From Gaiellaceae bacterium (GTDB lineage: Bacteria; Actinomycetota; Thermoleophilia; Gaiellales; Gaiellaceae): 64,000 nucleotides of DNA. Under the pieces are notes generated by a model that made no database searches, was not told the origin of the DNA, and worked only from the letters and a program-made list of their open reading frames with translations. Shown here piece by piece: positions 21,489 through 61,606 of this stretch. A program made the position numbers and the translations under genes. Where the stretch lies: positions 3,305 to 67,304 of the forward strand of contig DASPSY010000094.1 in assembly GCA_035623685.1 (NCBI GenBank), in the 5' to 3' direction. The stretch's first letter is position 1, and every line of letters begins with the position of its first letter.

Positions 21489-22499
21489 TTGGCAACCATT
21501 CACCGCGAAGGAAACATCGACCTCCTGTCCGGGAAGGTCGCGGTCATCGGATACGGCAGCCAGGGCCACGCGCATGCGCTGAACCTGCGCGACTCCGGCG
21601 TGGACGTCGAGGTCGGACTGCGCGAGTCGAGTCCGTCACGCGAGGCCGCCGAGGACGCCGGCCTCGCAGTCGGCACGATCGCCGAGGCGACGAGCGGCGC
21701 AGAGCTCGTCGCCATCCTCTTGCCGGACCACGTGCAGAAGGGCGTCTACGCGCAGGAGATCGAGCCGAACCTCGAGGCGAACGCCGCGCTGCTGTTCGCG
21801 CACGGGCTCAACGTCCACTTCGGCCGGATCGTTCCCGCCGCCGGCCACGACGTCGTGATGGTGGCTCCGAAAGCGCCCGGTCACCGGGTCCGCGAGCTGT
21901 TCGAGTCCGGCGCGGGCACGCCGGGCCTCGTCGCCGTGCACCAGGACGCGAGCGGACGCGCGCTCGAGCTCGCCCTCGCCTACGGCACCGCGATCGGATG
22001 CGGACGGGTCGGTCTGCTCGAGACGACCTTCGCGGAGGAGACCGAGAGCGACCTGTTCGGCGAGCAGGCCGTGTTGTGCGGCGGTGCGACGGCGCTGATC
22101 TCCGCGGGCTTCGAGACGCTGGTCGCCGCCGGTTACCAGCCGGAGATCGCCTACTACGAGTGCGTCAACGAGCTCAAGCTCATCGTCGACCTGATCTATG
22201 AGGGAGGATTCGAGTACATGCGTCACTCGATCTCCGACGTCGCCGAGTACGGCGATCTCTCCCGGGGTCCGCGCGTCGTCGACGAGCGCGTGAAGCAGAC
22301 GATGCGGGAGCTGCTCGAGGAGATTCGCAGCGGCGCGTTCGCACGCGAGCTCTTCGCCGACGACGAGGCGGGACGGCCCCGATTCGAGGAGCTGCGTGCA
22401 CGCAACGCCGGCGGGCTACTCGAGGAGGTCGGCTCCGAGCTGCGCGACCTCGCTGGGAAGCGAGGGCTCCTCGGCGTGGACGTGCATGGCGTCAGTTGA
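21489..22499 (+). CDS. ilvC: ketol-acid reductoisomerase
   Basis: TTG start with GAAAGGAG SD. Sequence ...[25 protein letters not shown]..., class-I KARI, 336 aa. Confidence 0.95.
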
Positions 22500-23775
22500 C
22501 GTTCCCGTCGCGCTGCTCGGCTACGGCACGGTCGGCGCGGCGGTCGATCGACTGCTGATCGAGAACGGGGACGAAATCGAGCGGGCGACCGGCCACAGGC
22601 TGCGCGTCGTGCGCGCGCTCGTACGTGACTCGGGCAAGGAGCGCGAGCACCAACCGGCCTCCGACGTCCTGACTACCGACTTCGAGTCGATCCTCGAGGA
22701 CGACTCGATCGCGCTCGTGGCCGAGGTGATGGGCGGGCTCGAGCCGACGGGAAGCTACGTGCTCGAGCTGCTGCGCGCCGGCAAGCCGGTCGTGTCGGCG
22801 AACAAGCAGCTGCTCGCGCGGCGGAGCGCGGACCTGTTCGCCGCGGCTGCGGAAGGAGACGTCCAGCTCCGCTTCGAGGCGTCCGTCTGCGCGGCCATCC
22901 CTGTGATCAAGGTCCTGCGCGAGTCCCTCGTGGTCACGAACGTCCACCGTGTGCTCGGGATCGTGAACGGAACGACGAACTTCATCCTCACGCGCATGGA
23001 GAGCGGGACCGGGTACGAAGAGGCGCTCGCCGAGGCACAGCGGCTCGGCTACGCCGAGGCCGATCCGACGGAGGACGTGTCGGGAGCGGACGCCGCGGCG
23101 AAGATGGCGATCCTCGCCACGGTCGCGTTCGGCTCGCGCGTCGAGCTCGGCGACGTCCGCTACGAGGGAATCGAGGGGATCAAGCCGCACCACGTCGCCG
23201 CCGCGTACACGGAGTCCGCCGTCATCCGCCTCGTCGGCTCGGCCACGCTCGTCGGCGATGCCGTCGACGTCCGCGTCGGGCCCGCGTTCGTCGATCGCCA
23301 CCATCCGCTCGCCTCGGTCGACGGCCCGTTCAACGCGGTCATGCTCCAGGGCGACGCGATCCGCGAGATCACGCTGGAAGGTCCCGGCGCGGGCGGCGTC
23401 GAGACCGCATCGGCCGTGATCGCCGACATGGTGAGCGTGCTGGGGACGAACGAGACCGGGTTCCTGCAGAACGACGCGAGCTGGCGCTCGCTCGAGCGGC
23501 TACCTCCCGGCGAGCTGCCCGCGCGCTTCTACGTCCACGTCGAGGTCGACGACAAGCCCGGAGTCCTCGCGCACCTCGCCGAGTGCTTCGCAGAGGAAGG
23601 GGTCTCCATCGCCACGCTCGCGCAGCACCTCGTCGACGGCAGCGCCGCGCTGGACCTCGTCACGCACGAGGCGCCCGCGGGACGAGTCGAGTCGGCGCTC
23701 GACGCCGCCGCACGGCTCGGCGACGTCCGCTCCACGCCGGAGGCGTTCAGGCTGATCGCGGAGCGTGGGCTCTAG
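22486..23775 (+). CDS. hom: homoserine dehydrogenase with C-terminal ACT domain
   Basis: ATG 22486 in ORF 22396..23775: [20 protein letters not shown]..., [10 protein letters not shown] and [15 protein letters not shown]-like C-terminus [28 protein letters not shown]. Overlaps the ilvC end by 14 nt. Confidence 0.87.
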
Positions 23776-27658: not shown

Positions 27659-27830
27659 GTCGGCGGCGTTCGCCGCCAGTATCTCGTCCCGCCGAGAGCG
27701 GAGCAGGGCCGCGCCGCTCCGAAGCGCCTCGCCGACGAGCGACTCGTCAAGACCGGGGAGCGCGTCGCGCGCCGCCTCGGCCTCGCCCGCAACCAGCTCG
27801 AGAGTGTCGCGGCGGCGCGTTTCTTTACTT

Positions 27831-27860
27831 TCTACACCGATCGTCGCCCTACTCTATAGT
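27831..27860 (+). promoter_or_regulatory. candidate promoter for the SAM riboswitch-thrC paralogue transcript
   Basis: TCTACA (27831-27836), 18-nt spacer, TATAGT (27855-27860), in a locally AT-rich stretch about 27 nt upstream of the riboswitch P1. Confidence 0.35.
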
Positions 27861-27886
27861 GCGTCCCCAGCGAGCGGGCCCGTCCC

Positions 27887-27993
27887 GCTCCGCATCAAGA
27901 GAGGTCGAGGGAACCGGCCCGACGACGCCTCGGCAACCTGCGCGAAGCGCAAGGTGCCAAGCCGGCCGAGCAGCCGCTCGGACGATGTAGAGC
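27887..27993 (+). promoter_or_regulatory. SAM-I (S-box) riboswitch
   Basis: GCUCCGCAUCAAGAGAGGUCGAGGGAACCGGCCCGACGACGCCUCGGCAACCUGCGCGAAGCGCAAGGUGCCAAGCCGGCCGAGCAGCCGCUCGGACGAUGUAGAGC carries the conserved AUCAAGAG-GG-GAGGGA-GGCCC-GA-CC-GCAACC...GGUGC-AA-CC...GAUG core. P1 is GCUCCGCAUC/GAUGUAGAGC. It lies 23 nt before ATG 28017. Confidence 0.85.
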
Positions 27994-28016
27994 GAGACAA
28001 CCGGAGGAGGCCTTCC

Positions 28017-29234
28017 ATGCCCGCCACGCACCTCTGCTGCACCCGCTGTGCGAACACGCTCCCGCTCGATGCGGTCGTCGCGTGCCCGAAGTGCTTCGCG
28101 CCGCTCGAGCCGGTCTACGACAGCGCCGAGCTCGAGCGAACCTGCACGCGGGAGTCGATCGCGTCCGGCCCGCCGTCGATCTGGCGCTACGCGCCGCTGC
28201 TGCCGGTCGAGCCCGCATCGGCACGGCTCGCACCCGGCCTGACGCCGCTCGTTGGCGCACCGCGACTCGCCGCCGAGCTCGGCGTCCGCGAGCTCTACCT
28301 GAAGCTCGACACCGCGAATCCGACACACTCGTTCAAGGACCGCGTCGTCGCCGTCGCGTGCGCGAAGGCACAGGAGCTCGGGCTCGAGACCCTCGCGTGC
28401 TCGTCCACGGGGAACCTCGCGAACGCAGTCGCCGCGCGCGCCGCCGCCGAAGGGCTCGACGCCGCGGTCTTCTGCCCGGTCGACCTCGAGCGCGAGAAGC
28501 TCGTCGCAACCGCCGCGTACGGCGCGACGATCTACGCCGTGCGCGGCACGTACGACGACTGCAGCCGCCTGACGGTCGAGCTGTCGTTCGAGCTGCCGTG
28601 GGCGTTCGTCAACGTCGGGCTGCGCTCCTACTACTCCGAGGGCTCGAAGACCGTTGGGTACGAGATCGCGGAGCAGCTCGGATGGGAGCTGCCGGACGCC
28701 GTCGTGTGCCCGATCGCATCGGGGTCGCTGCTCTCGAAGGTCGGGCGCGGGTTTCGCGACTTCCTCGAGCTCGGTCTCGTCGACGGTCGCCCGCCGAAGC
28801 TGGTCGGCGGACAGCCGGCCGGTTGCTCCCCGGTTGCGGACGCGTTCGCGGAGGACCGTGCTGTCAAGCCCGTGCGTCCGTCGACGGTCGCCCGCTCGCT
28901 CGCGATCGGGAGCCCGGCCGACGGAGGACCGGCGATCGCCGCAGTCCGCGAGTCGGGCGGATCGATCCACGCGGTCGCCGAGAACGAGATCGGCAACGAG
29001 ATGGCGACGCTCGCGGAGACGACCGGGGTGCTCGGCGAGACCGCGACAGGCGTTACGCTCGGCGCTCTGCGCGAGGCGATTCGCATCGGACGGGTGGGCT
29101 CGGACGACCGCGTCGTCCTGCTCGTCACGGGCGACGGGCTGAAGACGCCCGGCCCGGTCGCGGACCGGCTCGCGCCCGTCGAGATCGAGCCCGACGCCGA
29201 CGCGCTCCTGAACGACCTCGGAGTCGCCGTCTGA
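28017..29234 (+). CDS. threonine synthase-fold PLP enzyme with N-terminal zinc ribbon (SAM-regulated paralogue; MetM-like hypothesis)
   Basis: ATG 28017 with GGAGGAGG SD: MPATHLCCTRCANTLPLDAVVACPKCFAPLEPVYD (CxxC..CxxC). PLP lysine motif NPTHSFKDRVV, plus STGNLANAVAARAA. 405 aa. Confidence 0.8.
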   Translation: MPATHLCCTRCANTLPLDAVVACPKCFAPLEPVYDSAELERTCTRESIASGPPSIWRYAPLLPVEPASARLAPGLTPLVGAPRLAAELGVRELYLKLDTANPTHSFKDRVVAVACAKAQELGLETLACSSTGNLANAVAARAAAEGLDAAVFCPVDLEREKLVATAAYGATIYAVRGTYDDCSRLTVELSFELPWAFVNVGLRSYYSEGSKTVGYEIAEQLGWELPDAVVCPIASGSLLSKVGRGFRDFLELGLVDGRPPKLVGGQPAGCSPVADAFAEDRAVKPVRPSTVARSLAIGSPADGGPAIAAVRESGGSIHAVAENEIGNEMATLAETTGVLGETATGVTLGALREAIRIGRVGSDDRVVLLVTGDGLKTPGPVADRLAPVEIEPDADALLNDLGVAV

Positions 29235-29253
29235 CCTCGCGCGCACGAGTCTG

Positions 29254-30243
29254 ATGCGCGTCGTCTGCCTGCCCGGGGACGGAATCGGCGCCGAGGTGAC
29301 GGCTGCCTCGCGTCGCGTGCTCGAGGCGCTGCCGCTCGAGGTCGAGCTCGAGGAGTACGTGTTCGGCGGCGCGGCGATCCACGAGACCGGGGATCCGCTT
29401 CCCCCCGAGACGCTCGCGGCGTGCCGTCGCTCGGACGCCGTGCTGCTCGGCGCGGTCGGCTTACCCGAGTTCGACGGCGCGCCGGTGCGTCCCGAGCAGG
29501 GGTTGATCCGCATCCGCGGCGAGCTGGACGTCTACGCCAACCTCAGGCCGAGCCAGGGCGACGGGATCGACCTGCTGATCGTCCGCGAGCTCGTCGGCGG
29601 CCTCTACTTCGGCGCGAGCGGTCGACGCGCGGACGGTTCCGCATTCGACACCTGCGACTACACACCGGCCCAGATCGACCGCCTCGCGCGACGCGCATTC
29701 GAGCTCGCACGCGACCGCCGAGGGCTCGTCACCTCCGTCGACAAGGCGAACGTGCTCGAGACCGGACGACTCTGGCGGGAGACGGTGACCGAGGTCGCCG
29801 TCGACTACCCCGACGTGCGCCTCGAGCACATGCTGGTCGACACTGCCGGCCTGCAGCTCGTGCTCGACGCATCGCGCTTCGACGTGATCGCCACCGAGAA
29901 CACGTTCGGGGACATCCTCTCGGACGTCGCTGCAGGGACGTGCGGCGGTCTCGGACTCGCCGCCTCCGCTTCGCTCGGCGACGGCAATCCCGGGATCTTC
30001 GAGCCCGTGCACGGATCGGCGCCGGACATCGCAGGCAAGGGGATCGCGAACCCGGCCGCGTCGCTTCGCTCCACTGCGTTGCTCCTTCGCCACGCCGCCG
30101 CAGAGCTCGTGCTCGCGGCCCAGCTGGAGCGCGCCGTCGAGGCGGCCCTTGCGACGATCCCCACACCCGACCTCGGCGGAACGGCCACGACCGACGAGTT
30201 CACGGACGCCGTGCTGGCGGAGCTCGACGGCGCGGCGCTGTAG
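29254..30243 (+). CDS. leuB: 3-isopropylmalate dehydrogenase
   Basis: [15 protein letters not shown]..., [42 protein letters not shown] and [15 protein letters not shown] form the canonical IPMDH motif set. Confidence 0.9.
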   Translation: [329 protein letters not shown]

Positions 30244-30257
30244 CTAGGCTCGGCGTC

Positions 30258-31100
30258 ATGAACGAACACGGGACATCGACCACGATCGCGTACGCAGGCG
30301 GCGCCGCCGCGCACAGCGCTGCTGCCGCCGAGCGCCTGTTTCCCGACAGTGGCGAGCTGCGATCGCTGGACACATTCACCGACGTCGTGCAGGAAACGGT
30401 CGAGGGCCGTGCGACGTACGGCGTCCTACCGATCGAGAGCTCGCTCGTCGGACCCGTCGCGGAGACGCACGACCTGCTCTACCGTGCACCGCTCTCGATC
30501 ACCGCGGAGACGTCGATCCCGATCCGGCATCACCTCGTCGCACGCGAGCAGCTCGCGCCGACGGACGTGCGAGTCGTGCGTTCGCATCCCGTCGCACTCG
30601 AGCAGTGCCGCGAGCTCCTGCGGCGACTGCGCGGAGCGAAGGCGATCGCTGCACCGACGACGGCGGATGCAGCGGCTCAGGTAGCCGAGTCGGAGGAGTC
30701 GGGCGAGGCCGCGATCGCGAGCGACCGGGCCGCGGCCCTCTACGGGCTGCACGTGATCGAGTCGGACGTCGGCGACCACCCAGAGGCATTCACGCGCTTC
30801 GTCTCCGTCGCCTCCCACACGCGTATCGACCGCGAGCACGAGACCTGGAGAACGGCGTTCTCGTTCGTCACCGACCATCGCGCCGGCGCGCTGCACGGCG
30901 CGATCGAGCCGTTCGCACGCCACGGCATCGACCTCGTCCAACTCGTGTCGCGTCCGATCCCGGAGTCGCCGTGGAGCTACCGCTTCGACGCTGTGCTCAC
31001 GGGCCATCCGCTCGACCCGGAGATCCGCGTCGCGCTCGGCGAGCTGCGCGAGCGTTCGCTCACGCTCCGCGTCTTCGGCTCGTACCCGGCCGGCGCCTAG
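30258..31100 (+). CDS. pheA: prephenate dehydratase (PDT + ACT domains)
   Basis: ATG 30258 in ORF 29421..31100: ...IAYAGGAAAHSAAAAERLFP...YGVLPIESSLVGPV..., TRFV, and ACT region SFVTDHRAGALHGAIEPFARHGIDLVQLVSRP. Confidence 0.86.
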   Translation: MNEHGTSTTIAYAGGAAAHSAAAAERLFPDSGELRSLDTFTDVVQETVEGRATYGVLPIESSLVGPVAETHDLLYRAPLSITAETSIPIRHHLVAREQLAPTDVRVVRSHPVALEQCRELLRRLRGAKAIAAPTTADAAAQVAESEESGEAAIASDRAAALYGLHVIESDVGDHPEAFTRFVSVASHTRIDREHETWRTAFSFVTDHRAGALHGAIEPFARHGIDLVQLVSRPIPESPWSYRFDAVLTGHPLDPEIRVALGELRERSLTLRVFGSYPAGA

Positions 31101-33855: not shown

Positions 33856-34842
33856 GTGACGCAGCCGCTCGCCGAGCGCTACCGCGACCGACTGCCGCTC
33901 ACGGCGACGACGCCGATCGTCTCGCTCGGCGAGGGGTCGACGCCGCTTCTCGCCGCGCCGCGGCTCTCGCAACGGCTGGGCCTCGAGCTCTGGCTGAAGT
34001 GCGAGGGCCAGAACCCGACGGGCTCCTTCAAGGACCGCGGCATGACCGTCGCGCTCTCCAAGGCACTCGAGGACGGCGCCGAGGCCGTCGTCTGCGCGTC
34101 GACTGGAAACACGGCCGCGTCCGCGGCCGCGTACGCCGCCCGCGCCGGGATCGCCGCGCTCGTCCTCCAGCCCGCCGGCGCGGTCGCCGCAGGCAAGCTG
34201 GCCCAGGCACGGGCCGTCGGCGCGCGCCTGCTCGAGGTTCGTGGCTCGTTCGACGAAGCGCTCGCCGCCGCGGAGGAGTTGGCGAGGCGCGGCACGCACG
34301 TGCTCGTCAACTCGGGGATGAACGCCTATCGGATCGAGGGCCAGAAGACGGCGGCCTTCGAGATCTCCGACGAGCTGGGCCGTCCGCCGGACGTCGTCGC
34401 CCTCCCGTACGGTGGCGGCGGCAACACGCGCGCGTACTACAAGGGCTTCGTCGAGCTCGGCGCAGGAATCCCGCGGCTGCTCGCAGGGGAGTCCGCGCAG
34501 CGGACGACGACGGCCGCGACCGCGATCCGGATCGCCGATCCGGTGCACGCCGCCGAGGTCGAGGAGGCGGTACTCGGATCGGACGGCCGGGTGGTGACGC
34601 TCAGGGAGGAGGCGATCATCGACGCGTGGCGACTGCTCGCCCACGACGAGGGCGTCTTCTGCGAGCCGGCGTCGGCCGCCGGAGTCGCGGCTGTCCAGGC
34701 GACGGAGCTCGCCCCCGGCACGCGTGTGGTCTGCGTCGTCACGGGCCACGGCCTCAAGGACCCGGCCTCGGCGACGCGCTTGACACCTGAGCCGATCGCC
34801 GTCGACCCCGACCCGGACGCCATCGCCGAGGCCGGGCGATGA
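33856..34842 (+). CDS. thrC: threonine synthase (housekeeping type, 328 aa)
   Basis: RYRDRLPLTATTPIVSLGEGSTPLL...KCEGQNPTGSFKDRGMTVALSKA...CASTGNTAASAAAYAARAG closely follows the actinobacterial ThrC pattern. ATGA-coupled to thrB. Confidence 0.9.
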   Translation: MTQPLAERYRDRLPLTATTPIVSLGEGSTPLLAAPRLSQRLGLELWLKCEGQNPTGSFKDRGMTVALSKALEDGAEAVVCASTGNTAASAAAYAARAGIAALVLQPAGAVAAGKLAQARAVGARLLEVRGSFDEALAAAEELARRGTHVLVNSGMNAYRIEGQKTAAFEISDELGRPPDVVALPYGGGGNTRAYYKGFVELGAGIPRLLAGESAQRTTTAATAIRIADPVHAAEVEEAVLGSDGRVVTLREEAIIDAWRLLAHDEGVFCEPASAAGVAAVQATELAPGTRVVCVVTGHGLKDPASATRLTPEPIAVDPDPDAIAEAGR

Positions 34843-35647
34843 GGATCCACGTCCGGGCACCGGCGACCACCGCGAACCTCGGCCCCGCCTTCGACTGCGC
34901 GGCGGTCGCGCTCGAGCTCTGGAACGAGCTCGAGGTCACGAACGGCAACGGCGACGCCGACCCGTCGCACCTCGGCATCCGCGCGTTTGCGCGATTCGCT
35001 CCGGCCGACGGGCTCCGCTTCGAGTTCGTCGACCGCGTCCCACGGGAGCGCGGGCTCGGCTCGAGCGCTTCGGTGGTCGCGCTCGGGCTGGTCGCAGGCG
35101 CGGTCGCCGCGGGCGTCCAGCCCGACGCGGAGCGGCTGCTCGCAGCGGGTCTCGACCTCGAGGGTCACGGCGACAACCTCGCGGCCGCGCTCGCGGGTGG
35201 CGTTTGCCTGACGTGGGAGCAGCGGATCGCGCGGATCGCGGACGACACGCCCGCCACCCCGATCGCGGTCGTTCCGGCGGCGCGAGTGAACACCGCGAAG
35301 TCCCGCGCGTCGCTTCCCGTCGAAGTGACGCACGCCGACGCCGCGTTCAACGCGGGACGCGGCACGCTGCTCGGCGCCGCGCTCGCGTCCGGATCGACCG
35401 ACCTGTTCGCTGCCGCCCTGCACGACCGCCTGCACGAGCCGTATCGCTCGCCCTTCCTCGACGAGGTCCGCAACGCGCTGCCGGACGGGGCGCTCGGCGC
35501 GACGCTCTCCGGGTCCGGTCCGACGGTGATCGTGTGGGCGGAGCGAACCGCGGCCGGCGGGTGCGCGACCGAGCTGGCGCAGACGTTTCCCGAGCAGGAC
35601 GTCCGGCCGCTCGCGGTCGCGACGACCGGCGCGGTCGCCGCCGTGAG

Positions 35648-35651
<4 letters not shown>
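34839..35651 (+). CDS. thrB: homoserine kinase
   Basis: [22 protein letters not shown]..., the GHMP kinase motif [11 protein letters not shown], and LSGSGPTV. Confidence 0.9.
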
Positions 35652-55648: not shown

Positions 55649-56032
55649 TCAACCGAGAAGCGTGAGCGTCCATTCGTCGGCGCAGCGGTCTGCGAAGCCG
55701 AGCAGCAGGATCCGCTGCCAGCGCCCGAGGCACAGGCTCCCGTCGCTGTACGGGATCTGCTCGGTCCGCGGCCCGAGCAGGGAGCAGACGACACGCACCC
55801 GGTCCGGGGCATCGAGCGGGACGAGCCGCTCGAGCAGGCACTCGAGGTCGAGGAAGAAGCCCGTCTCGCGTTCCTGCACGCGCACGAGCGACGGGTCGCC
55901 GCTCGGCGACACGTACGCGATCCCGCTGCCTCCTGCCTTCCCGACAACGCGCTGGACGTCGCTCGTGATGTCGAGGACCGTCAGGTTCGGCAGCGCCGCC
56001 GCGATCGAGACGGGGATCTCGACCGACGTCAC
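55649..56032 (-). CDS. YjbQ/UPF0047-like protein (divergent), GTGA-coupled to ispH
   Basis: LDITSDVQRVV..., ERETGFFLDLECLLERLVP and IPYSDGSLCLGRWQRILLL follow the UPF0047 pattern. The usual HTT and His motifs are not obvious. Confidence 0.5.
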   Translation of the reverse strand: MTSVEIPVSIAAALPNLTVLDITSDVQRVVGKAGGSGIAYVSPSGDPSLVRVQERETGFFLDLECLLERLVPLDAPDRVRVVCSLLGPRTEQIPYSDGSLCLGRWQRILLLGFADRCADEWTLTLLG

Positions 56033-57003
56033 GCCGATCCGCCTCCTTGCGCCGCCGTGGTCACCTGCGCGCGTCTCGCGCTCTGCATCGACGAGGGAAG
56101 CCGGAAGTGGACGTCCTCACGCGCGACGGTGATCTCCTCGAGCTCCGACCAGCCGAGCTCGGAGAGCCGAGCGACGGTCGCTTGCACGAGCGCCTCCGGC
56201 GTCGACGCGCCGGCGGTCAGGCCGATCGTCTCGTGCGGCGCGAGCGAGGACCGGTCGAGCGCGTCCTCGCCTTCGATCAGCTCCGCCTCGGCGCCGGCGT
56301 TGCGCGCGACCTCGACGAGCCGCTGCGCGTTCGAGCTCGTCTGCGAGCCGATCACGAGGATGAGGCTCGCCTCCTCGGCGAGCTGCTTGACTGCGTCCTG
56401 CCGATTCTGGGTCGCGTAGCAGATGTCATCGGCGGCTGGCCGCCGGAGGTTACCGAACCGCTCCGAGAGGGCCTCGACCGTCTCGCTCACGTCGTCGAGC
56501 GACAGCGTCGTCTGTGTGACCACTGCGACCGGCAGGCCGCCTGCGTCCAGGCGCCGCGCGTCCTCCGGCGACTCGATCACGACCGTGGACTCGGGCCGCT
56601 CGCCGCGCGTCCCGATCACCTCGACATGGTCGGCGTGGCCGACGAGCGCAACCAGGTGGCCGCTGTCCGCGTACCGGCGCGCCTCGGCGTGCACCTTCGA
56701 GACCAGCGGACAGACGGCGTCGACGACGCGCAGTCCCCGTTGCTCGCAGTTCTCGCGGACCGACGGCGCAACGCCGTGCGCGGAGAGCACGCAGATCTCG
56801 CCCGCCGGGACCTCGTCCTCGGAGTCGACGAAGACGGCGCCCAACCCCTCGAGCCGTCGCACGACGTGGTCGTTGTGCACGATCTGGTGCCTGACGTAGA
56901 TCGGCGGCCCGTGCTCGGCGAGCAGGCGCTCGACGATCTCGATCGCACGGTCGACGCCCGCACAGAAGGAGCGCGGCGCGGCGAGCAGGACACAGCGACT
57001 CAC
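56029..57003 (-). CDS. ispH: 4-hydroxy-3-methylbut-2-enyl diphosphate reductase
   Basis: GTG 57003 in ORF 56029..57408: VSRCVLLAAPRSFCAGVDRAIEIVE...IYVRHQIVHN..., SAHGV, DAVCPLVSKVH, HVEV, VTQTT, ICYATQNRQ and GSQTSSNAQRL. Confidence 0.92.
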   Translation of the reverse strand: MSRCVLLAAPRSFCAGVDRAIEIVERLLAEHGPPIYVRHQIVHNDHVVRRLEGLGAVFVDSEDEVPAGEICVLSAHGVAPSVRENCEQRGLRVVDAVCPLVSKVHAEARRYADSGHLVALVGHADHVEVIGTRGERPESTVVIESPEDARRLDAGGLPVAVVTQTTLSLDDVSETVEALSERFGNLRRPAADDICYATQNRQDAVKQLAEEASLILVIGSQTSSNAQRLVEVARNAGAEAELIEGEDALDRSSLAPHETIGLTAGASTPEALVQATVARLSELGWSELEEITVAREDVHFRLPSSMQSARRAQVTTAAQGGGSA

Positions 57004-57028
57004 GGCGTCCGCTCCTGACGGCGTCGTC

Positions 57029-57598
57029 TCACGAAACCGCCTCGAGGCTCTTGAGCGCCCGCCGCGCGTCGCGGGCCGCGCGCGCGGTCGCGCGCGGCTC
57101 CCGGACGAGCGCGCGGAAGAAGCCGCGGTAGTCGGTCTCGCCGCTCGGCTTCGCCGCCTGCGCAAGGCCGCCCAGCTGCCGCTCGGGCGTGTCGCTGATC
57201 GCCCTGACGCAGCCGGCCAGCCGGCCGCTGCGCGCGAGCGGGCCAGACTCCATGTCGACGACGTCCGCGCCGGTCTCCGCGCACAGCCGCGCACGCTCGG
57301 CCGGAAGGTCGACGATCCGCGAGGCGCCGAGCACCGTGCCGGTGCGCGCCGAGGAGACGCCAAGCGGCCCGCCCTCCCACAGGACGTGCCCATCCTCGTC
57401 GACGACACGCGTCGCGTCGATCACCGTGCCGACCGGGAGATCGCTGCGCAACGCGCCGGCGATCCCGAACGAGACGAGCCGGCCCTCCGGCACGCCGTTC
57501 GCCGTGCCGAGGCCGACTCTCACCGTCGGCCCGAGACGGCGGGCGATCCGTTCCTCGACCGTCATCGCACAGGCGAAGGTCAACCCGTCAGTGTCCAC
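57029..57598 (-). CDS. hpnG: hopanoid-associated phosphorylase/nucleosidase (PNP_UDP fold)
   Basis: ...LTFACAMTVEERIA..., SFGIAGAL and VVDMESGPLA are MTA/SAH-nucleosidase-like motifs. Positioned directly after hpnH. The start could be GTG 57598 or ATG 57565. Confidence 0.65.
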   Translation of the reverse strand: MDTDGLTFACAMTVEERIARRLGPTVRVGLGTANGVPEGRLVSFGIAGALRSDLPVGTVIDATRVVDEDGHVLWEGGPLGVSSARTGTVLGASRIVDLPAERARLCAETGADVVDMESGPLARSGRLAGCVRAISDTPERQLGGLAQAAKPSGETDYRGFFRALVREPRATARAARDARRALKSLEAVS

Positions 57599-58584
57599 GC
57601 CATGCTCCTGGCGCTCTCCTTGATCGAGCCGGCAGCCTCGTACGCGGCCGACGGCTCGAACCCCGAATGGATGGCGCAGTGCTCGCAGCGTGCGTCGTTC
57701 CCCGGGCCGTACTCATCCCACTCGATGCCGTCGAGGAGCGCGTCGTAGGTCGGGAAGATCCCGTCTGTCAGCAGGTAGCACGGCCCCTTCCACCCATACG
57801 GGTTGCGCGTGATCGATCCCCACGGCGCGCACGGGAGCTTGCGCTCGCCAGTCAGGAACTCCTGGTAGATCGGGCTCGCGAGCCACCGGTAGCCGCGCTG
57901 ACGGGCGACCTTGCGGATGATGCGGAACTTCTCCTCGTGCTCCGCGCGCGTCATCGTCAGCGACGGGTCGATCTGCGAGTACTGATAGCCAGGAGCGATC
58001 AGCATGCCGTCGATGCCGACCTCGTTCGTCAGGTAGCCCATCATCTCGAGCAGGTCGTCGACGGATGTCTCCTTGAAGATGGTCGTGTTCGTCGTGACGC
58101 GGAACCCGGCCTCGCGCGCCTTCTTGATCGCGTCGACCGCGACGTCCCACAGGCCCGGGTAGTCGCAGATGTAGTCGTGGATCTCGCGCATCCCGTCGAG
58201 GTGCACGACGAACGTGAGCCGGTGGCTCGGCGTGAAGACGTCGAGGTACTGCTCGAGGCGCAGGGCGTTCGTGCAGAGATCGATGTTCTTCTCCAGCTCG
58301 AGCATCCCGGCGACGACGTCCTCGATGCCCTTGTAGACGAGCGGCTCGCCGCCGCAGATCGAGACCACGGGCGCGGGGCACTGGACGCCCGCGTCGAGAC
58401 ACTCCTCGACCGTGAGGCGCGCCTTGTTCGACTCGTACTCGCGGATCTTCCCGCAGCCGATGCAGGCGATGTTGCAGGCGAGCGTCGGCTCGAGCATCAG
58501 CACGAGCGGATATCGCTCGCCCTTCCGTTGCTGCTGAGCGACGTAGCGGCCGATCTGGACCGTTGAGCGGAGCGGGAACTTCAT
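57580..58584 (-). CDS. hpnH: adenosylhopane synthase, radical SAM protein HpnH
   Basis: ATG 58584 (ATGA overlap with the shc stop): MKFPLRSTVQIGRYVAQQQRKGERYPLVLMLEPTLACNIACIGCGKIREY (CxxxCxxC)...GGEPL...VHLDG...CAPWGSITRNPYGWKGPCYLL...CEHCAIHSGFE. Confidence 0.87.
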   Translation of the reverse strand: MKFPLRSTVQIGRYVAQQQRKGERYPLVLMLEPTLACNIACIGCGKIREYESNKARLTVEECLDAGVQCPAPVVSICGGEPLVYKGIEDVVAGMLELEKNIDLCTNALRLEQYLDVFTPSHRLTFVVHLDGMREIHDYICDYPGLWDVAVDAIKKAREAGFRVTTNTTIFKETSVDDLLEMMGYLTNEVGIDGMLIAPGYQYSQIDPSLTMTRAEHEEKFRIIRKVARQRGYRWLASPIYQEFLTGERKLPCAPWGSITRNPYGWKGPCYLLTDGIFPTYDALLDGIEWDEYGPGNDARCEHCAIHSGFEPSAAYEAAGSIKESARSMAWTLTG

Positions 58585-60371
58585 TCGCGATTGAGCCTTT
58601 CTCTCAGTCTCCCCAATGCAAGAAGGGGAAACGTGAGCCGGTAGAGGTGATAGCGAATCATGAAGTCGAGCGGGAAGCCCGTGCCTGTGAAGTGCTGCTC
58701 GTCCCAGTCGCCGTCGCGAAGCTGGGTGCGGCAAAGATACTCAGCCGCCCGCCGCGTCGACAAGCGACGTCCCTCGCCCGCAGCCACGTAGGCGAGCAGC
58801 GCCCAGGCCGTCTGCGACGCCGTCGCGGCGCCGCGGCCGCGCCTCGCCGGATCCGCGTAGGAGCCGACGTCCTCGCCGAACGCGCCTCCAGGCTGCTGGA
58901 CGGAGTCGAGCCACGCGACCGCGGAGCGGTAGGCGGGGTGGTCGTATGGAAGGCCGCACGCCTCGAGCGCCGGGAGGGCCGCACCGGTGCCGTAGACGTG
59001 GTTCACGCCCCAGCGGCCGAACCAGGAGCCGTCCGCCTCCTGCTCGGCGAGGAGCCATGCGAGGCCCTCGCGGACCGGCGCGGCGTAGCCGTCCTCGGGT
59101 GCGAGCGCCTCGAGCGCATGCGCCGTCACGTCAGCGCTCGGCTCGTCGGTCACCTTGCCGAAGTCGCAGAACGGGATCCGGTAGAGCCACATCGCCTCGT
59201 TGTCGACGTCGAAGGCGCCCCAGCCGCCCGAGCGCGACTGCATTCCCGCCGTCCAGTCGAGACCGCGTCGGATTGCGGCGTCGCCGATGTCGAGCTCGCG
59301 CAGCGCGAGCGCGACGACCACCGTGTCGTCCACGTCGGGATAGAGGTCGTTCTCGAACTCGAACGCCCAGCCGCCGGGTTCGAGCTCCGGCAGCCGGATC
59401 GCCCAGTCGCCGCTGGGGTTCGTCACCTCCTCGGCCAGCAGCCAGCTGCCCGCAGCCTGCAGCTGCGGATGGTCGGCCGGCACGCCGGCCGCGCGCAGGC
59501 CCAGGACCGCGAGCGCCGTGTCCCAGACCGGTGACTGGCACGCCTCCGGGCGGAGGCGGTCGCCGTCCTCGATCATGAACGCGTCCCAGCCCTGGACCGC
59601 GCGACGGAAGGTCTCGTCCTCGAACCCGTGGCCGAGGGCCGCGAGCATGAGGATCGCCCACACCCAGGGCGGCTGGATCCCGCCCCAGGAGCCGTCGGCC
59701 TCCTGCCGTGCGCGCACCCAACGCTCGCCGGCGGCGATCGCCTCGCGTCGGAGGCGCCCGGGCCGCGCCGCGGGCTGCGACTCCCCCGGGCGAGCACCGA
59801 TGTCGCGCAGGTCGAGATCCGCGGGCCTGACGGGTCGCAACGCGCTCGTCACCGCAAGCGGCACGAACGTGCACCGCGCCCAGCACGAGAAGCTGTAGAC
59901 CGAGATCGGGAACGACGGTCGAGAGAGCACGAGTTCGGGCGGGATCGGCACGATCCGCTGCCACGGCCATTGCCCGAGCAGCGCGAGGAAGCACTTGGTG
60001 AAGATGCGCGCCCGCGGGACACCGCCGTTTCTCCGGATGAAGTCGCGCGCGGGCGGCCCCGCGTCGACTCCGGCGAGCTTCAGGGCGACGTACGCCTCGA
60101 TCGTCGTGTCGAGATCGCCCGGGCCCTCGAACCAGATGCCCCACGTGCCGTCGTCGCGCTGTCGCGTGAGCAACTCGCTGGCGATCCTCCGGTCGAGCTC
60201 GGGCGTGCGCAGTCCGAGCACGTGATGCCAGAAGAGATGCTGGGCGGTCATGGTCACGTTCGACTCGAGCTCTCCCTTCCACCAGCCGTCCGGATGCTGG
60301 AGCTCGAGCAGCCGCTCCGCCGCCATGTCGACGGCACGGTCGAGAGAGGTCAGCTCGGCCACCGCGCTCAC
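58581..60371 (-). CDS. shc: squalene-hopene cyclase
   Basis: GTG 60371 (GTGA overlap with the hpnE stop). Repeated QW motifs (QHPDGWW, QRDDGTWG, QEADGSWGG, QSRSGGWGAF, QEADGSWFGRWG, QQPGGAFG, QLRDGDW). Catalytic DVDDTVVV. Confidence 0.92.
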   Translation of the reverse strand: MSAVAELTSLDRAVDMAAERLLELQHPDGWWKGELESNVTMTAQHLFWHHVLGLRTPELDRRIASELLTRQRDDGTWGIWFEGPGDLDTTIEAYVALKLAGVDAGPPARDFIRRNGGVPRARIFTKCFLALLGQWPWQRIVPIPPELVLSRPSFPISVYSFSCWARCTFVPLAVTSALRPVRPADLDLRDIGARPGESQPAARPGRLRREAIAAGERWVRARQEADGSWGGIQPPWVWAILMLAALGHGFEDETFRRAVQGWDAFMIEDGDRLRPEACQSPVWDTALAVLGLRAAGVPADHPQLQAAGSWLLAEEVTNPSGDWAIRLPELEPGGWAFEFENDLYPDVDDTVVVALALRELDIGDAAIRRGLDWTAGMQSRSGGWGAFDVDNEAMWLYRIPFCDFGKVTDEPSADVTAHALEALAPEDGYAAPVREGLAWLLAEQEADGSWFGRWGVNHVYGTGAALPALEACGLPYDHPAYRSAVAWLDSVQQPGGAFGEDVGSYADPARRGRGAATASQTAWALLAYVAAGEGRRLSTRRAAEYLCRTQLRDGDWDEQHFTGTGFPLDFMIRYHLYRLTFPLLALGRLRERLNRE

Positions 60372-61606
60372 GCGGCCACCTGTGAGGTTCGTGCCGCGAG
60401 CGCGCGCGCCGCGGCGCGGCCGGACCGCACGGCGCTCTCCATCGTCGCCGGCCAGCCGGTGTCCGTCCACGCGCCCGCGCGAACGACGTTCGGCCGCGAC
60501 GTCTCTGCGCCCGGTCGCACGCGCGCGGTGCCGGGCCGGAGCGCGATCGTCGCGTGCGGTTCCCGCGAGACGCGTGACCAGACGAGCTCGGCCGGGCCGA
60601 GCCGCTCGGTCAGCTGCCCCGCGATCAGATCGACGAGCGCGCGGCCGCGAAGCTCCATCAACTCCGGCACGCCACTCGACACTACCGTCAGGTACTGGCC
60701 TTCCGCGGGCGGATGTCGCGTCAGCGCGCCGCGGTCGAAGACCCAGTGCGCATCGGATCCGAGCAGTGCCGCCAACGGGGGCTCGAGCAACTTCCGGTCG
60801 AACTGGAGGTGCACGCTCACGATCGGCGAGTCCTCGAGCCGGGGCGGCGGCTCGTCGAGCAGGCGCGCGCACTCGTTCGGCGGCACGGCCAGGACGACAG
60901 CGTCCGCGTCGAGGTCGTCGAGCGACTCGACCCGCGAGCCCGTGTGGACGGACGCGCCGGCCGCCTCGAGCGCACGTCCCGCCGCGTCGCCGTGCATCCA
61001 GCCGAGCGGTCTCGCCGGCAGCAGCACCTCGCTCGCCTTGCGTCCCGAGAGAAGTCCTGTCTGAACCGTGAACAGCGCGGCTCCAGCACTCACCGCTCGC
61101 GTCGGCAGGTTGAGCGCGGGGCGGATGAACACGTCCCAGAACCGATCGATCGCCCGCTCGGTCTGTCCCATCCGCAGCAGCACCTTGCCGAACGTCTCGT
61201 CGTCGTGGGCCGCGGGCTCGAGCCCGCGCAACGACAGGAGCACCCGCGCGCCAGGCCGCTCGCGGCGCGGGAGGTGGCCGTACCTCCCGAGCAGGATCGA
61301 GAGCGCGGAGATCCGTGACCAGTGCCGGTTCTCGTCCACGACGGGGAGGTCGAGCCGCAGCCGGTCGACGGAGCCGGCTTCGCCGACGCGCTCGAGGAAG
61401 CGGATGTACTCGGTGAAGCAGCCGAGCGCGATGTGCTGGCCGTTGTCCGGCGGCGGACTCGGGTCTCCCTCGCGCTCCGGAAGCGTCTGCACCGCGCCGC
61501 CGAGCGTCGGCCGCGCCTCGACCAGCGTGACCTCGTGGCCCGCGTCGACGAGCTCGAGCGCGGCGGTGCAGCCGGCGAGCCCGCCGCCGACCACGACCGC
61601 TCTCAT
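60368..61606 (-). CDS. hpnE: hydroxysqualene dehydroxylase (FAD-dependent amine-oxidase fold)
   Basis: ATG 61606 (ATGA overlap): MRAVVVGGGLAGCTAALELVDAGHEVTLVEARPTLGG is an FAD dinucleotide fold. Located between hpnD and shc. Confidence 0.75.
   Translation of the reverse strand: MRAVVVGGGLAGCTAALELVDAGHEVTLVEARPTLGGAVQTLPEREGDPSPPPDNGQHIALGCFTEYIRFLERVGEAGSVDRLRLDLPVVDENRHWSRISALSILLGRYGHLPRRERPGARVLLSLRGLEPAAHDDETFGKVLLRMGQTERAIDRFWDVFIRPALNLPTRAVSAGAALFTVQTGLLSGRKASEVLLPARPLGWMHGDAAGRALEAAGASVHTGSRVESLDDLDADAVVLAVPPNECARLLDEPPPRLEDSPIVSVHLQFDRKLLEPPLAALLGSDAHWVFDRGALTRHPPAEGQYLTVVSSGVPELMELRGRALVDLIAGQLTERLGPAELVWSRVSREPHATIALRPGTARVRPGAETSRPNVVRAGAWTDTGWPATMESAVRSGRAAARALAARTSQVAA

Follow-up and report, generated by a model that had tools for sequence, protein, structure and literature searches.

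A 64,000-nucleotide stretch from a Gaiellaceae bacterium (assembly GCA_035623685.1, contig DASPSY010000094.1, positions 3,305 to 67,304), referred to here as the window, carries on its forward strand a riboswitch of the S-adenosylmethionine (SAM)-I class at 27882-27998, directly ahead of a gene (28017-29234) for a pyridoxal 5'-phosphate (PLP) enzyme with the threonine synthase (ThrC) fold. The gene is followed by leuB and pheA, while a second thrC-type gene, coupled to the homoserine kinase gene thrB, lies 4.6 kb away. The features at this locus make it likely, in our view, that the riboswitch represses an enzyme of the MetM family, which would make homocysteine from O-phosphohomoserine.

An earlier note, made from the sequence alone, had placed a SAM-I aptamer at 27887-27993 and proposed a search with the Rfam model RF00162. 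Run as part of a search with 4227 Rfam families over both strands of the full 64-kb window, this model scored 70.2 bits (gathering score 44.4; E 2.3e-14) at 27889-27991 (+). The alignment is complete, covering model positions 1-108 of 108 without truncation, and is the sole Rfam match above gathering score in the window. In the model alignment P1-P4 are all present, together with the core motifs AUCNAGAG, GGCAACC and GGUGCCAA and the P1-closing GAUG, and the P1 strands GCUCCGCAUC and GAUGUAGAGC can be read in the sequence just as the earlier note gave them. The minimum-free-energy fold of 27880-28040 gives the four-way junction and extends P1 outward to 27882/27998, forming a long helix (GUC-CGCUC-GCAUC / GAUGU-GAGCG-GAC). 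This extended P1 is well supported by pairing and covariation within the window's clade, that is, the loci with enzymes at least 61% identical to the window protein, which form a clade with 100% bootstrap support. Across 27 distinct clade leaders 88% of cells in P1 and its extension are paired, against 20-40% in slid controls, four pairs are altered on both sides, and the covariation score was reached by 3 of 500 shuffles. The Rfam match ends 25 nt before the ATG at 28017; the spacing of 23 nt between 27993 and the ATG, and the Shine-Dalgarno (SD) sequence GGAGGAGG, were both correctly read before. By its covariance score, its junction and core, and its position in the leader, the RNA is a SAM-I riboswitch, predicted to bind SAM and to switch.

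The open reading frame (ORF) at 28017-29234 encodes 405 residues, with the motif NPTHSFKDR around K107 and CTRC...CPKC near the N-terminus, so that the earlier description of a zinc-ribbon PLP enzyme holds. The product scores 218.6 bits against PF00291 and 223 bits against the generic thrC model TIGR00260 (cutoff 167). Both ThrC-type copies of the window pass this latter model, which therefore does not discriminate between them. Against NF006050, the model for ribbon-bearing threonine synthases, the product reaches 280 bits, under the curated cutoff of 303. The closest database proteins are 73-82% identical and are named 'threonine synthase [Gaiellaceae bacterium]', which places the organism among Thermoleophilia of the Gaiellales type. 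The AlphaFold model (predicted local distance difference test score, pLDDT, 91.6; predicted template modelling score, pTM, 0.91) compares with ThrC structures at a template modelling (TM) score of about 0.84 and 32-35% identity. K107 (codon at 28335-28337, +), the predicted Schiff-base lysine, aligns with K61 of Thermus ThrC in a column that is invariant in both families. The predicted four-cysteine ribbon (C8-x2-C11 ... C23-x2-C26; 28038-28094, +) is modelled as a pair of beta-hairpins with pLDDT 85-90; its cysteines are invariant in one alignment (A1), and the CxxC...CxxC pattern is found in 156 of 162 family members. In the structure comparison no solved structure covered the ribbon, and no MetM structure was found.

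When the family is aligned with ThrCs, 59 positions are identical in both groups, including the PLP lysine and the STGN loop, and 16 are fixed differently. Among the latter, T88 of the Thermus enzyme is replaced by leucine (L134 in the window protein) and R160 by tyrosine (Y206) in 100% of the family against 100% of the ThrCs compared; in the same numbering N157 becomes R, Q164 becomes S and GM64-65 becomes VV. We take T88 and R160 to be the phosphate-binding residues behind the product-assisted specificity of Thermus ThrC; going by work of Omi in 2003 and Murakawa in 2011, they reportedly hold the phosphate of substrate or product, which steers water onto C-beta. On that assumption about their role, loss of their equivalents is consistent with a changed reaction outcome. 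The window's clade differs from the other family members at only six positions, with no obvious change to the active site among them.

Many relatives of the gene have a small partner. In Microcystis the neighbouring gene encodes a protein of about 90 residues, ending AVAGG, that is called MetO-like in the literature. Searches with this protein as probe, and then with a profile built from its matches (112 MetOs), showed that 112 of 167 loci, in Actinomycetota, Cyanobacteria and Chloroflexota, have a MetO-like gene directly 3' of the ThrC-like one, often overlapping it by 1 or 4 nt. These neighbours are about 90 residues long, belong to PF02597 (the ThiS/MoaD family) and end in GG. In a metagenome-assembled genome (MAG) of Solirubrobacteraceae (L049, 5001-6509) a single ORF joins the ThrC-like enzyme, through a 16-residue linker, to a full MetO with AVAGG at its end. 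It may be a natural fusion of MetM and MetO, although it is seen in one MAG and could be an assembly or frameshift artefact; a second supposed fusion, L112, was discarded on account of a stop codon in its translation. An adjacent MetO is present in nearly all loci whose enzyme is no more than 59% identical to that of the window. The ribbon is degenerate in Microcystis (L072) and in one other cyanobacterium (L078 was also noted), and takes a CxxxC form in three other cyanobacteria; it is therefore not essential for MetO linkage.

The two ThrC-type paralogues of the window are 35% identical to each other. With four crystallised ThrCs from the PDB as reference (Aquifex 2zsj, B. subtilis 6cgq, Thermus 1uim and M. 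tuberculosis 2d1f), scores are 275-286 bits for the thrB-coupled copy and 148-174 bits for the riboswitch-controlled one. The earlier note had called for a phylogeny of both copies, and a neighbour-joining tree (61 sequences, 396 columns, 60 bootstraps; not a maximum-likelihood tree) separates them. One group consists of the PDB ThrCs (98%) and another of the copies linked to thrB in the window and in related loci (100%), with the window's thrB-linked copy grouping with the PDB ThrCs. The riboswitch-controlled copy, all its homologues and the MetO-linked genes form a family of their own (100%, stem 0.46), separate from the ThrCs. Judged by these scores, by its place in the tree and by its retention of the T88 and R160 equivalents, the copy at 33856-34842 (+) is a canonical threonine synthase; as had been noticed before, it is coupled to thrB, with which it shares 4 nt. 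The riboswitch-controlled copy is, by the same sequence comparisons, a member of the MetO-linked family and not of the ThrC family, in keeping with the earlier view that it was unlikely to be the housekeeping threonine synthase.

The association of riboswitch and gene extends well beyond the window. Loci were drawn from a scan of species-representative genomes (80), a metagenome scan (80) and a few contig look-ups, and span Thermoleophilia, Acidimicrobiia, Actinomycetes, Cyanobacteria and Chloroflexota. Aptamers were detected with Rfam on selected loci and with a regular expression for the core motifs. The strict expression misses many, and negatives by expression alone are unreliable: Rfam rescued 13 of 15 in one set and 7 of 11 among metagenomic loci. 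In four of the aptamers the P3 and P4 stems were too variable for MAFFT to align. SAM-I aptamers lie upstream of the orthologues in Micromonospora and Actinoplanes (69 and 73 bits) and on a second Gaiellaceae contig (77 bits), in the 13 rescued Actinomycetota and Chloroflexota loci (51-88 bits), in the Dehalococcoidia locus L074 and in the seven rescued metagenomic loci. They are present in 30 of 31 loci of the window's clade with enough upstream sequence, in 45 of the 46 evaluable genome-derived loci from other Actinomycetota, and in none of 23 cyanobacterial loci. The pairing of SAM-I with MetM is the rule across Actinomycetota and also occurs in some Chloroflexota.

The leaders also vary. 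In the window's clade the P4 stem is wholly missing from about half of the SAM-I aptamers (L008, L011, L012, L091, L093, L098, L099, L101, L103-L106 and L108), whereas the window aptamer retains it; the shortened aptamers of L012, L091 and L104 give Rfam matches of about 91 nt that still score 61-67 bits as RF00162. A Chloroflexi MAG (L024, 6687-7113) has metM-metO without SAM-I, and a T-box leader (104 bits) stands directly after metO and before the next gene.

This arrangement has a published counterpart. According to 10.1101/2024.10.14.618325, MetM is the MetO-thiocarboxylate-dependent homocysteine synthase of Streptomyces albulus, 'often misannotated' as threonine synthase, and the MetM system is already included in GapMind; papers citing the new S. 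albulus methionine route credit it to Hasebe et al. 2024 (Appl Environ Microbiol 90:e01247-24). PMC12172450 describes a SAM riboswitch upstream of S. albulus metM and homologues in cyanobacteria, among them a Microcystis protein that is 51.6% identical to S. albulus MetM and has a MetO-like neighbour and no riboswitch. The literature search returned no further description of MetM chemistry. The published pattern matches the surveyed loci exactly, and the Microcystis member (L072) is 48% identical to the window protein. The window locus is accordingly of the SAM-riboswitch/metM/metO kind published in 2024, and less novel than the first note implied.

As in the S. albulus metM/metO locus, a ThrC-homologous PLP enzyme is preceded by a SAM riboswitch in the window. 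The protein family appears to be the same, judging from the MetO linkage of relatives and the reported identity of 51.6% between a cyanobacterial member and S. albulus MetM, and so does the metabolic logic, in which O-phosphohomoserine is converted to homocysteine under feedback from SAM. Unlike S. albulus, the window has no metO adjacent to the gene or within 28 kb upstream and 35 kb downstream, with leuB in its stead; its host is an uncultured Thermoleophilia of the Gaiellales type, and the gene sits inside a large amino-acid biosynthesis supercluster. The Microcystis aeruginosa 'ThrC' differs from the window in having an adjacent MetO-like gene, no SAM riboswitch and degenerate ribbon cysteines. 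With the class-I ThrCs 6cgq, 2zsj, 1uim and 2d1f the enzyme shares the fold, the PLP lysine motif, the STGN loop and, presumably, O-phosphohomoserine as substrate; in contrast to them it has the additional ribbon and the substitutions listed above, and its gene is predicted to be SAM-regulated and is not coupled to thrB; family members are coupled to a sulfur carrier.

Carrier-thiocarboxylate-dependent synthesis of cysteine and of homocysteine is known from CysM/CysO of M. tuberculosis and from HcyS/MetY of Wolinella, respectively. In those systems, as would be the case here, a ThiS/MoaD-like protein thiocarboxylate supplies sulfur to a PLP enzyme whose substrate is a hydroxy-amino acid in phosphorylated or acylated form, and the MetO-like proteins of the family are CysO-like (PF02597, C-terminal GG). 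The window enzyme is nevertheless of the ThrC type, unlike CysM, a cysteine synthase, and MetY, of fold type I, and no carrier is linked to it in the window.

The leader contains further conserved elements around the aptamer. A promoter-like element at 27831-27860 (+), with TCTACA and TATAGT parted by an 18-nt spacer, is identified by consensus match and is the one site in a promoter scan for which 0.0 were expected in shuffles. A TAnAnT box occupies the equivalent position in every clade leader examined. The element would put the transcription start a few nucleotides before a conserved 5' leader element, GCGAGCGGGC (27870-27879, +), which is conserved in about 27 distinct clade leaders, 8-12 nt past the TAnAnT box, and to which a regulatory function may be assigned. 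The 5' element is complementary both to the P1-extension strand (candidate helix A) and to the AUG-CCCGC start region (candidate helix B). The 3' strand of helix B would thus be the start codon with CCCGC of codons 2-3 of M-P-A (28017-28024, +). In the minimum-free-energy fold of the window leader the element pairs with 28019-28024, and pairing of the element with the start region recurs in that fold for most clade members, reaching a perfect 9-bp match in L009. The SD sequence (28003-28010, +) follows the extended P1 at a distance of 4 nt and precedes the ATG by 6 nt, and AGGAG-type SDs stand at the same place in clade leaders.

The clearest sign of an RNA element at the start site is the choice of codons. 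Where codon 2 of clade genes specifies proline it is CCC in 23 of 24 cases, whereas the other proline codons of the same genes are 29% CCC and 62% CCG (binomial p 8e-12, uncorrected for phylogeny); MetO-linked relatives favour CCG at this position. Codon 3 is GCC in 20 of 25 clade genes against a 39% background (28020-28025 covers both codons in the window). Such synonymous bias argues for selection on the RNA sequence itself. In L008 and L106, with the N-terminus M-S-A, CCC stands directly before GUG and complementarity to the 5' element is retained. The modelled probability of pairing between 5' element and start region is 0.46 with P1 enforced and 0.26 with the P1 3' strand withheld (p 2e-4). 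Column covariation yields no information on helix B because its 3' strand hardly varies. A helix B that sequesters the start codon, formed by the 5' element and AUG-CCCGC, is accordingly put forward as a hypothesis, suggested mainly by the synonymous bias at codon 2.

Simple SD sequestration was considered as a general mechanism and set aside: the SD-CCUUCC hairpin of the window is not conserved in relatives, and modelled SD accessibility is higher with P1 closed. A terminator scan found no terminator-like site or hairpin between aptamer and ATG, as the earlier note had observed in proposing translational control. Since only 25 nt, without a terminator, separate aptamer and ATG, control of translation initiation is the most economical assumption, and it is at this step that the riboswitch probably acts.

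Taken together, these features suggest a simple metabolic circuit. Hom and ThrB, both encoded in the window, would make O-phosphohomoserine, for which ThrC and the MetM-like enzyme would compete at a branch point, ThrC converting it to threonine and the riboswitch-controlled paralogue exchanging its gamma-phosphate for sulfur to give homocysteine. Since homocysteine is the precursor of methionine and SAM, binding of SAM would close a feedback loop: transcribed from its own promoter near 27831-27860, the riboswitch at 27882-27998 would repress the gene at 28017-29234 when SAM is plentiful. With the long P1 held closed by SAM, the 5' element may pair more readily with AUG-CCCGC. The sulfur would come from the thiocarboxylate of an unlinked ThiS/MoaD-type carrier or from free sulfide. 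Aptamer and fold, placement in the MetO-linked family and not with the ThrCs, and the conserved pairing of riboswitch and gene across Actinomycetota are observed here; the homocysteine-forming reaction is inferred from the published Streptomyces orthologue, and control would be of the OFF type. The earlier proposal of a MetM-type, O-phosphohomoserine-dependent homocysteine synthase under SAM control is in this respect strengthened by family placement, by MetO linkage and by SAM-I in relatives.

Several observations weigh against this account. Adjacent MetO is absent from all 39 loci of the window's clade. No MetO-like ORF was detected anywhere in the 64-kb window, either with tblastn at E=10 or with a filters-off profile hidden Markov model of the 112 MetOs at E<=10, and the 40 window ORFs scanned with Pfam include no ThiF/MoeZ, JAMM/Mec, rhodanese, CysK/M or methionine synthase. 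In the tree the window's clade branches as sister to all other family members and is not nested among them, so that a functional shift is possible. Orthology to S. albulus MetM (GenBank BHXC01000007) is indirect: it draws on the linkage to MetO, on the riboswitch and on the 51.6% identity reported for the Microcystis protein. According to PMC12172450, that protein acted in vitro as threonine synthase and threonine deaminase; in vivo it brought no rise of methionine and fell short of a full MetM. As for the expression platform, helix B is 70% paired in clade leaders, weakly above the 36-54% of slid controls, and its duplex energy of -16.0 kcal/mol against -14.7 kcal/mol in control windows (p 0.04) is a weak difference in a genome of 70% GC. 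Modelled accessibility of the start codon hardly shifts (0.26 vs 0.29), that of the SD rises in the P1-closed state, which is the wrong direction, and helix A, a 5' hairpin considered as anti-sequestrator, is not supported, as it does not exceed shuffled or slid controls.

Other readings of the enzyme have to be set beside that of a homocysteine synthase. The gene could be a second genuine threonine synthase, or a bifunctional synthase/deaminase like the Microcystis homologue, under incidental SAM control. Every database copy is so named, ThrCs are the best structural matches, TIGR00260 is passed with 223 bits against 167, and the Microcystis member made threonine and 2-ketobutyrate in vitro (PMC12172450). 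Yet the window has a canonical thrC-thrB pair 4.6 kb away that scores about 110 bits higher against validated ThrCs, the family is split from the ThrCs at 100% support and has lost the equivalents of Thermus T88 and R160, its members occur in fusion or translational coupling with a sulfur carrier, and the NF006050 score of 280 bits falls short of 303. Nor would it make regulatory sense to stop threonine synthesis at high SAM; in plants, SAM activates threonine synthase. We consider this reading very unlikely. More improbable still is another gamma-replacement on O-phosphohomoserine, for example with cysteine, as in the plant cystathionine gamma-synthase, which would likewise be SAM-regulated and feed methionine. 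Such a reaction has no known precedent in a ThrC-fold enzyme, no cystathionine beta-lyase was found in the scanned window ORFs, and the clade has all the family-specific residues of the MetO-linked members; in its favour are the lack of a linked carrier in the clade and the fact that O-phosphohomoserine is the branch-point substrate of plant cystathionine gamma-synthase (10.64898/2026.09.15.751699).

A homocysteine synthase of this family, under the same riboswitch, might also work without a dedicated carrier, either sulfhydrylating O-phosphohomoserine directly with sulfide or borrowing a general carrier such as CysO, and would then differ from the account given above only in its sulfur donor. 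All 39 loci with at least 61% identity lack MetO beside the gene, and the window lacks it altogether, whereas relatives at or below 59% almost always have it. A second MetO-unlinked clade (Micromonospora, Actinoplanes, Mycobacteriales and Frankiaceae), nested among MetO-linked lineages, retains the SAM-I riboswitch. MetO linkage has been lost in at least two clades. The gaps of 260-390 nt before leuB in clade relatives were considered as a place for a cryptic carrier, and this was rejected, since what occupies them is either an AroQ chorismate mutase or an ORF of about 80 residues unrelated to the carrier. On the other hand, absence from 64 kb is silent on the rest of the genome, a large profile search for unlinked MetO is uninformative for Gaiellales, the 120 matches listed being all Solirubrobacterales-type proteins, the clade-specific positions are only six with no obvious active-site change, and GapMind describes MetM as thiocarboxylate-dependent (10.1101/2024.10.14.618325). 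Carrier independence is thus a possibility to be kept in mind, though not the one we would favour. The sulfur donor is most likely the thiocarboxylate of a ThiS/MoaD-type carrier encoded elsewhere in the genome, with free sulfide as the alternative. The earlier note had already found no ThiS/MoaD ORF next to the gene, with leuB and pheA following, and had looked to a donor encoded elsewhere; the window-wide searches agree, and the absence of MetO is real and specific to the window's clade. The main alternative as regards regulation is that SAM acts on transcription, by Rho-dependent termination or a non-canonical terminator without a U-tract, and not on translation initiation; the downstream leuB and pheA would then respond to SAM too. 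The 25 nt from aptamer to ATG leave no room for a terminator hairpin, the first codons are constrained at the nucleotide level in a way that suggests an RNA element where translation starts, and in other clade members unrelated ORFs part leuB from the gene, so that co-regulation is not conserved. Given that thermodynamic modelling yields no convincing SAM-dependent occlusion of SD or AUG, and that the 19 nt separating the stop codon from leuB contain neither a terminator nor an obvious promoter, transcriptional control is unlikely without being negligible. Two bolder ideas, that the clade has freed its enzyme from a dedicated MetO to give a one-gene route with sulfide or a shared carrier and, separately, that its platform pairs a 5' element across the aptamer with the start codon and codons 2-3, are doubtful as they stand and are offered tentatively.

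The surroundings of the gene are themselves rich in amino-acid biosynthesis. More than half of the window (1-35651) is a single supercluster containing glnA, carB, argC/J/D/G/H, gltB, a leuA-like gene, ilvB, ilvC, hom, ilvD and proB/A, followed by the riboswitch gene, leuB, pheA, leuD/C, thrC and thrB, and such clustering is unusual. Homoserine would be supplied by hom (22396-23775, +), a homoserine dehydrogenase gene assigned from Pfam families on the identical contig L002. The producer of O-phosphohomoserine, thrB (34839-35651, +), has GHMP kinase N- and C-domains and matches TIGR00191 with 154 bits (E 3e-45), under the curated cutoff of 168. The leuB gene (29254-30243, +; TIGR00169, 358.7 bits) takes the place held by MetO in most relatives and comes next after the riboswitch-type gene in most loci of the window's clade; pheA (about 30258-31100) follows it. 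Between the riboswitch gene and leuB (29235-29253) there is no terminator and no obvious promoter or SD, and expression of leuB and pheA in this genome might feel SAM through polarity, although the two genes are often apart in relatives. The ORF of about 80 residues (MRTGPRTGFRWTPETIVYAITLW...GSWNAA...) between the ThrC-like gene and leuB is conserved in nine clade loci (L093, at 2716-2995, and L091, L096, L097, L098, L099, L102, L105 and L114), and the small AroQ-type chorismate mutase occupies this position in L087, L109, L111 and L115. Just 5' of the riboswitch promoter, a terminator-like hairpin with a T-run at 27804-27828 (+) adjoins proA on the opposite strand. The G+C content is 70.6%. 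Farther away, on the reverse strand, an isoprenoid/hopanoid gene group (56029-60872) comprises lytB/ispH (56029-57408), a radical-SAM DUF3463 protein (57580-58734) and a squalene-hopene cyclase (58581-60872).

For the MetM family as a whole this locus is a modest extension of the 2024 discovery, useful for annotation and without a new principle. What sets the clade apart is the lack of MetO linkage and, perhaps, an unusual expression platform. If MetO-less clades use sulfide directly, the pathway would be simpler than the published one and would show which partners the enzyme really needs. The Gaiellales are abundant and mostly uncultured soil Actinomycetota, and in them the label 'threonine synthase' hides what is probably the only route to homocysteine. 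The mislabel makes genome-based metabolic reconstructions wrongly predict either methionine auxotrophy or a redundant thrC, where these bacteria would instead possess a SAM-regulated enzyme for methionine supply.

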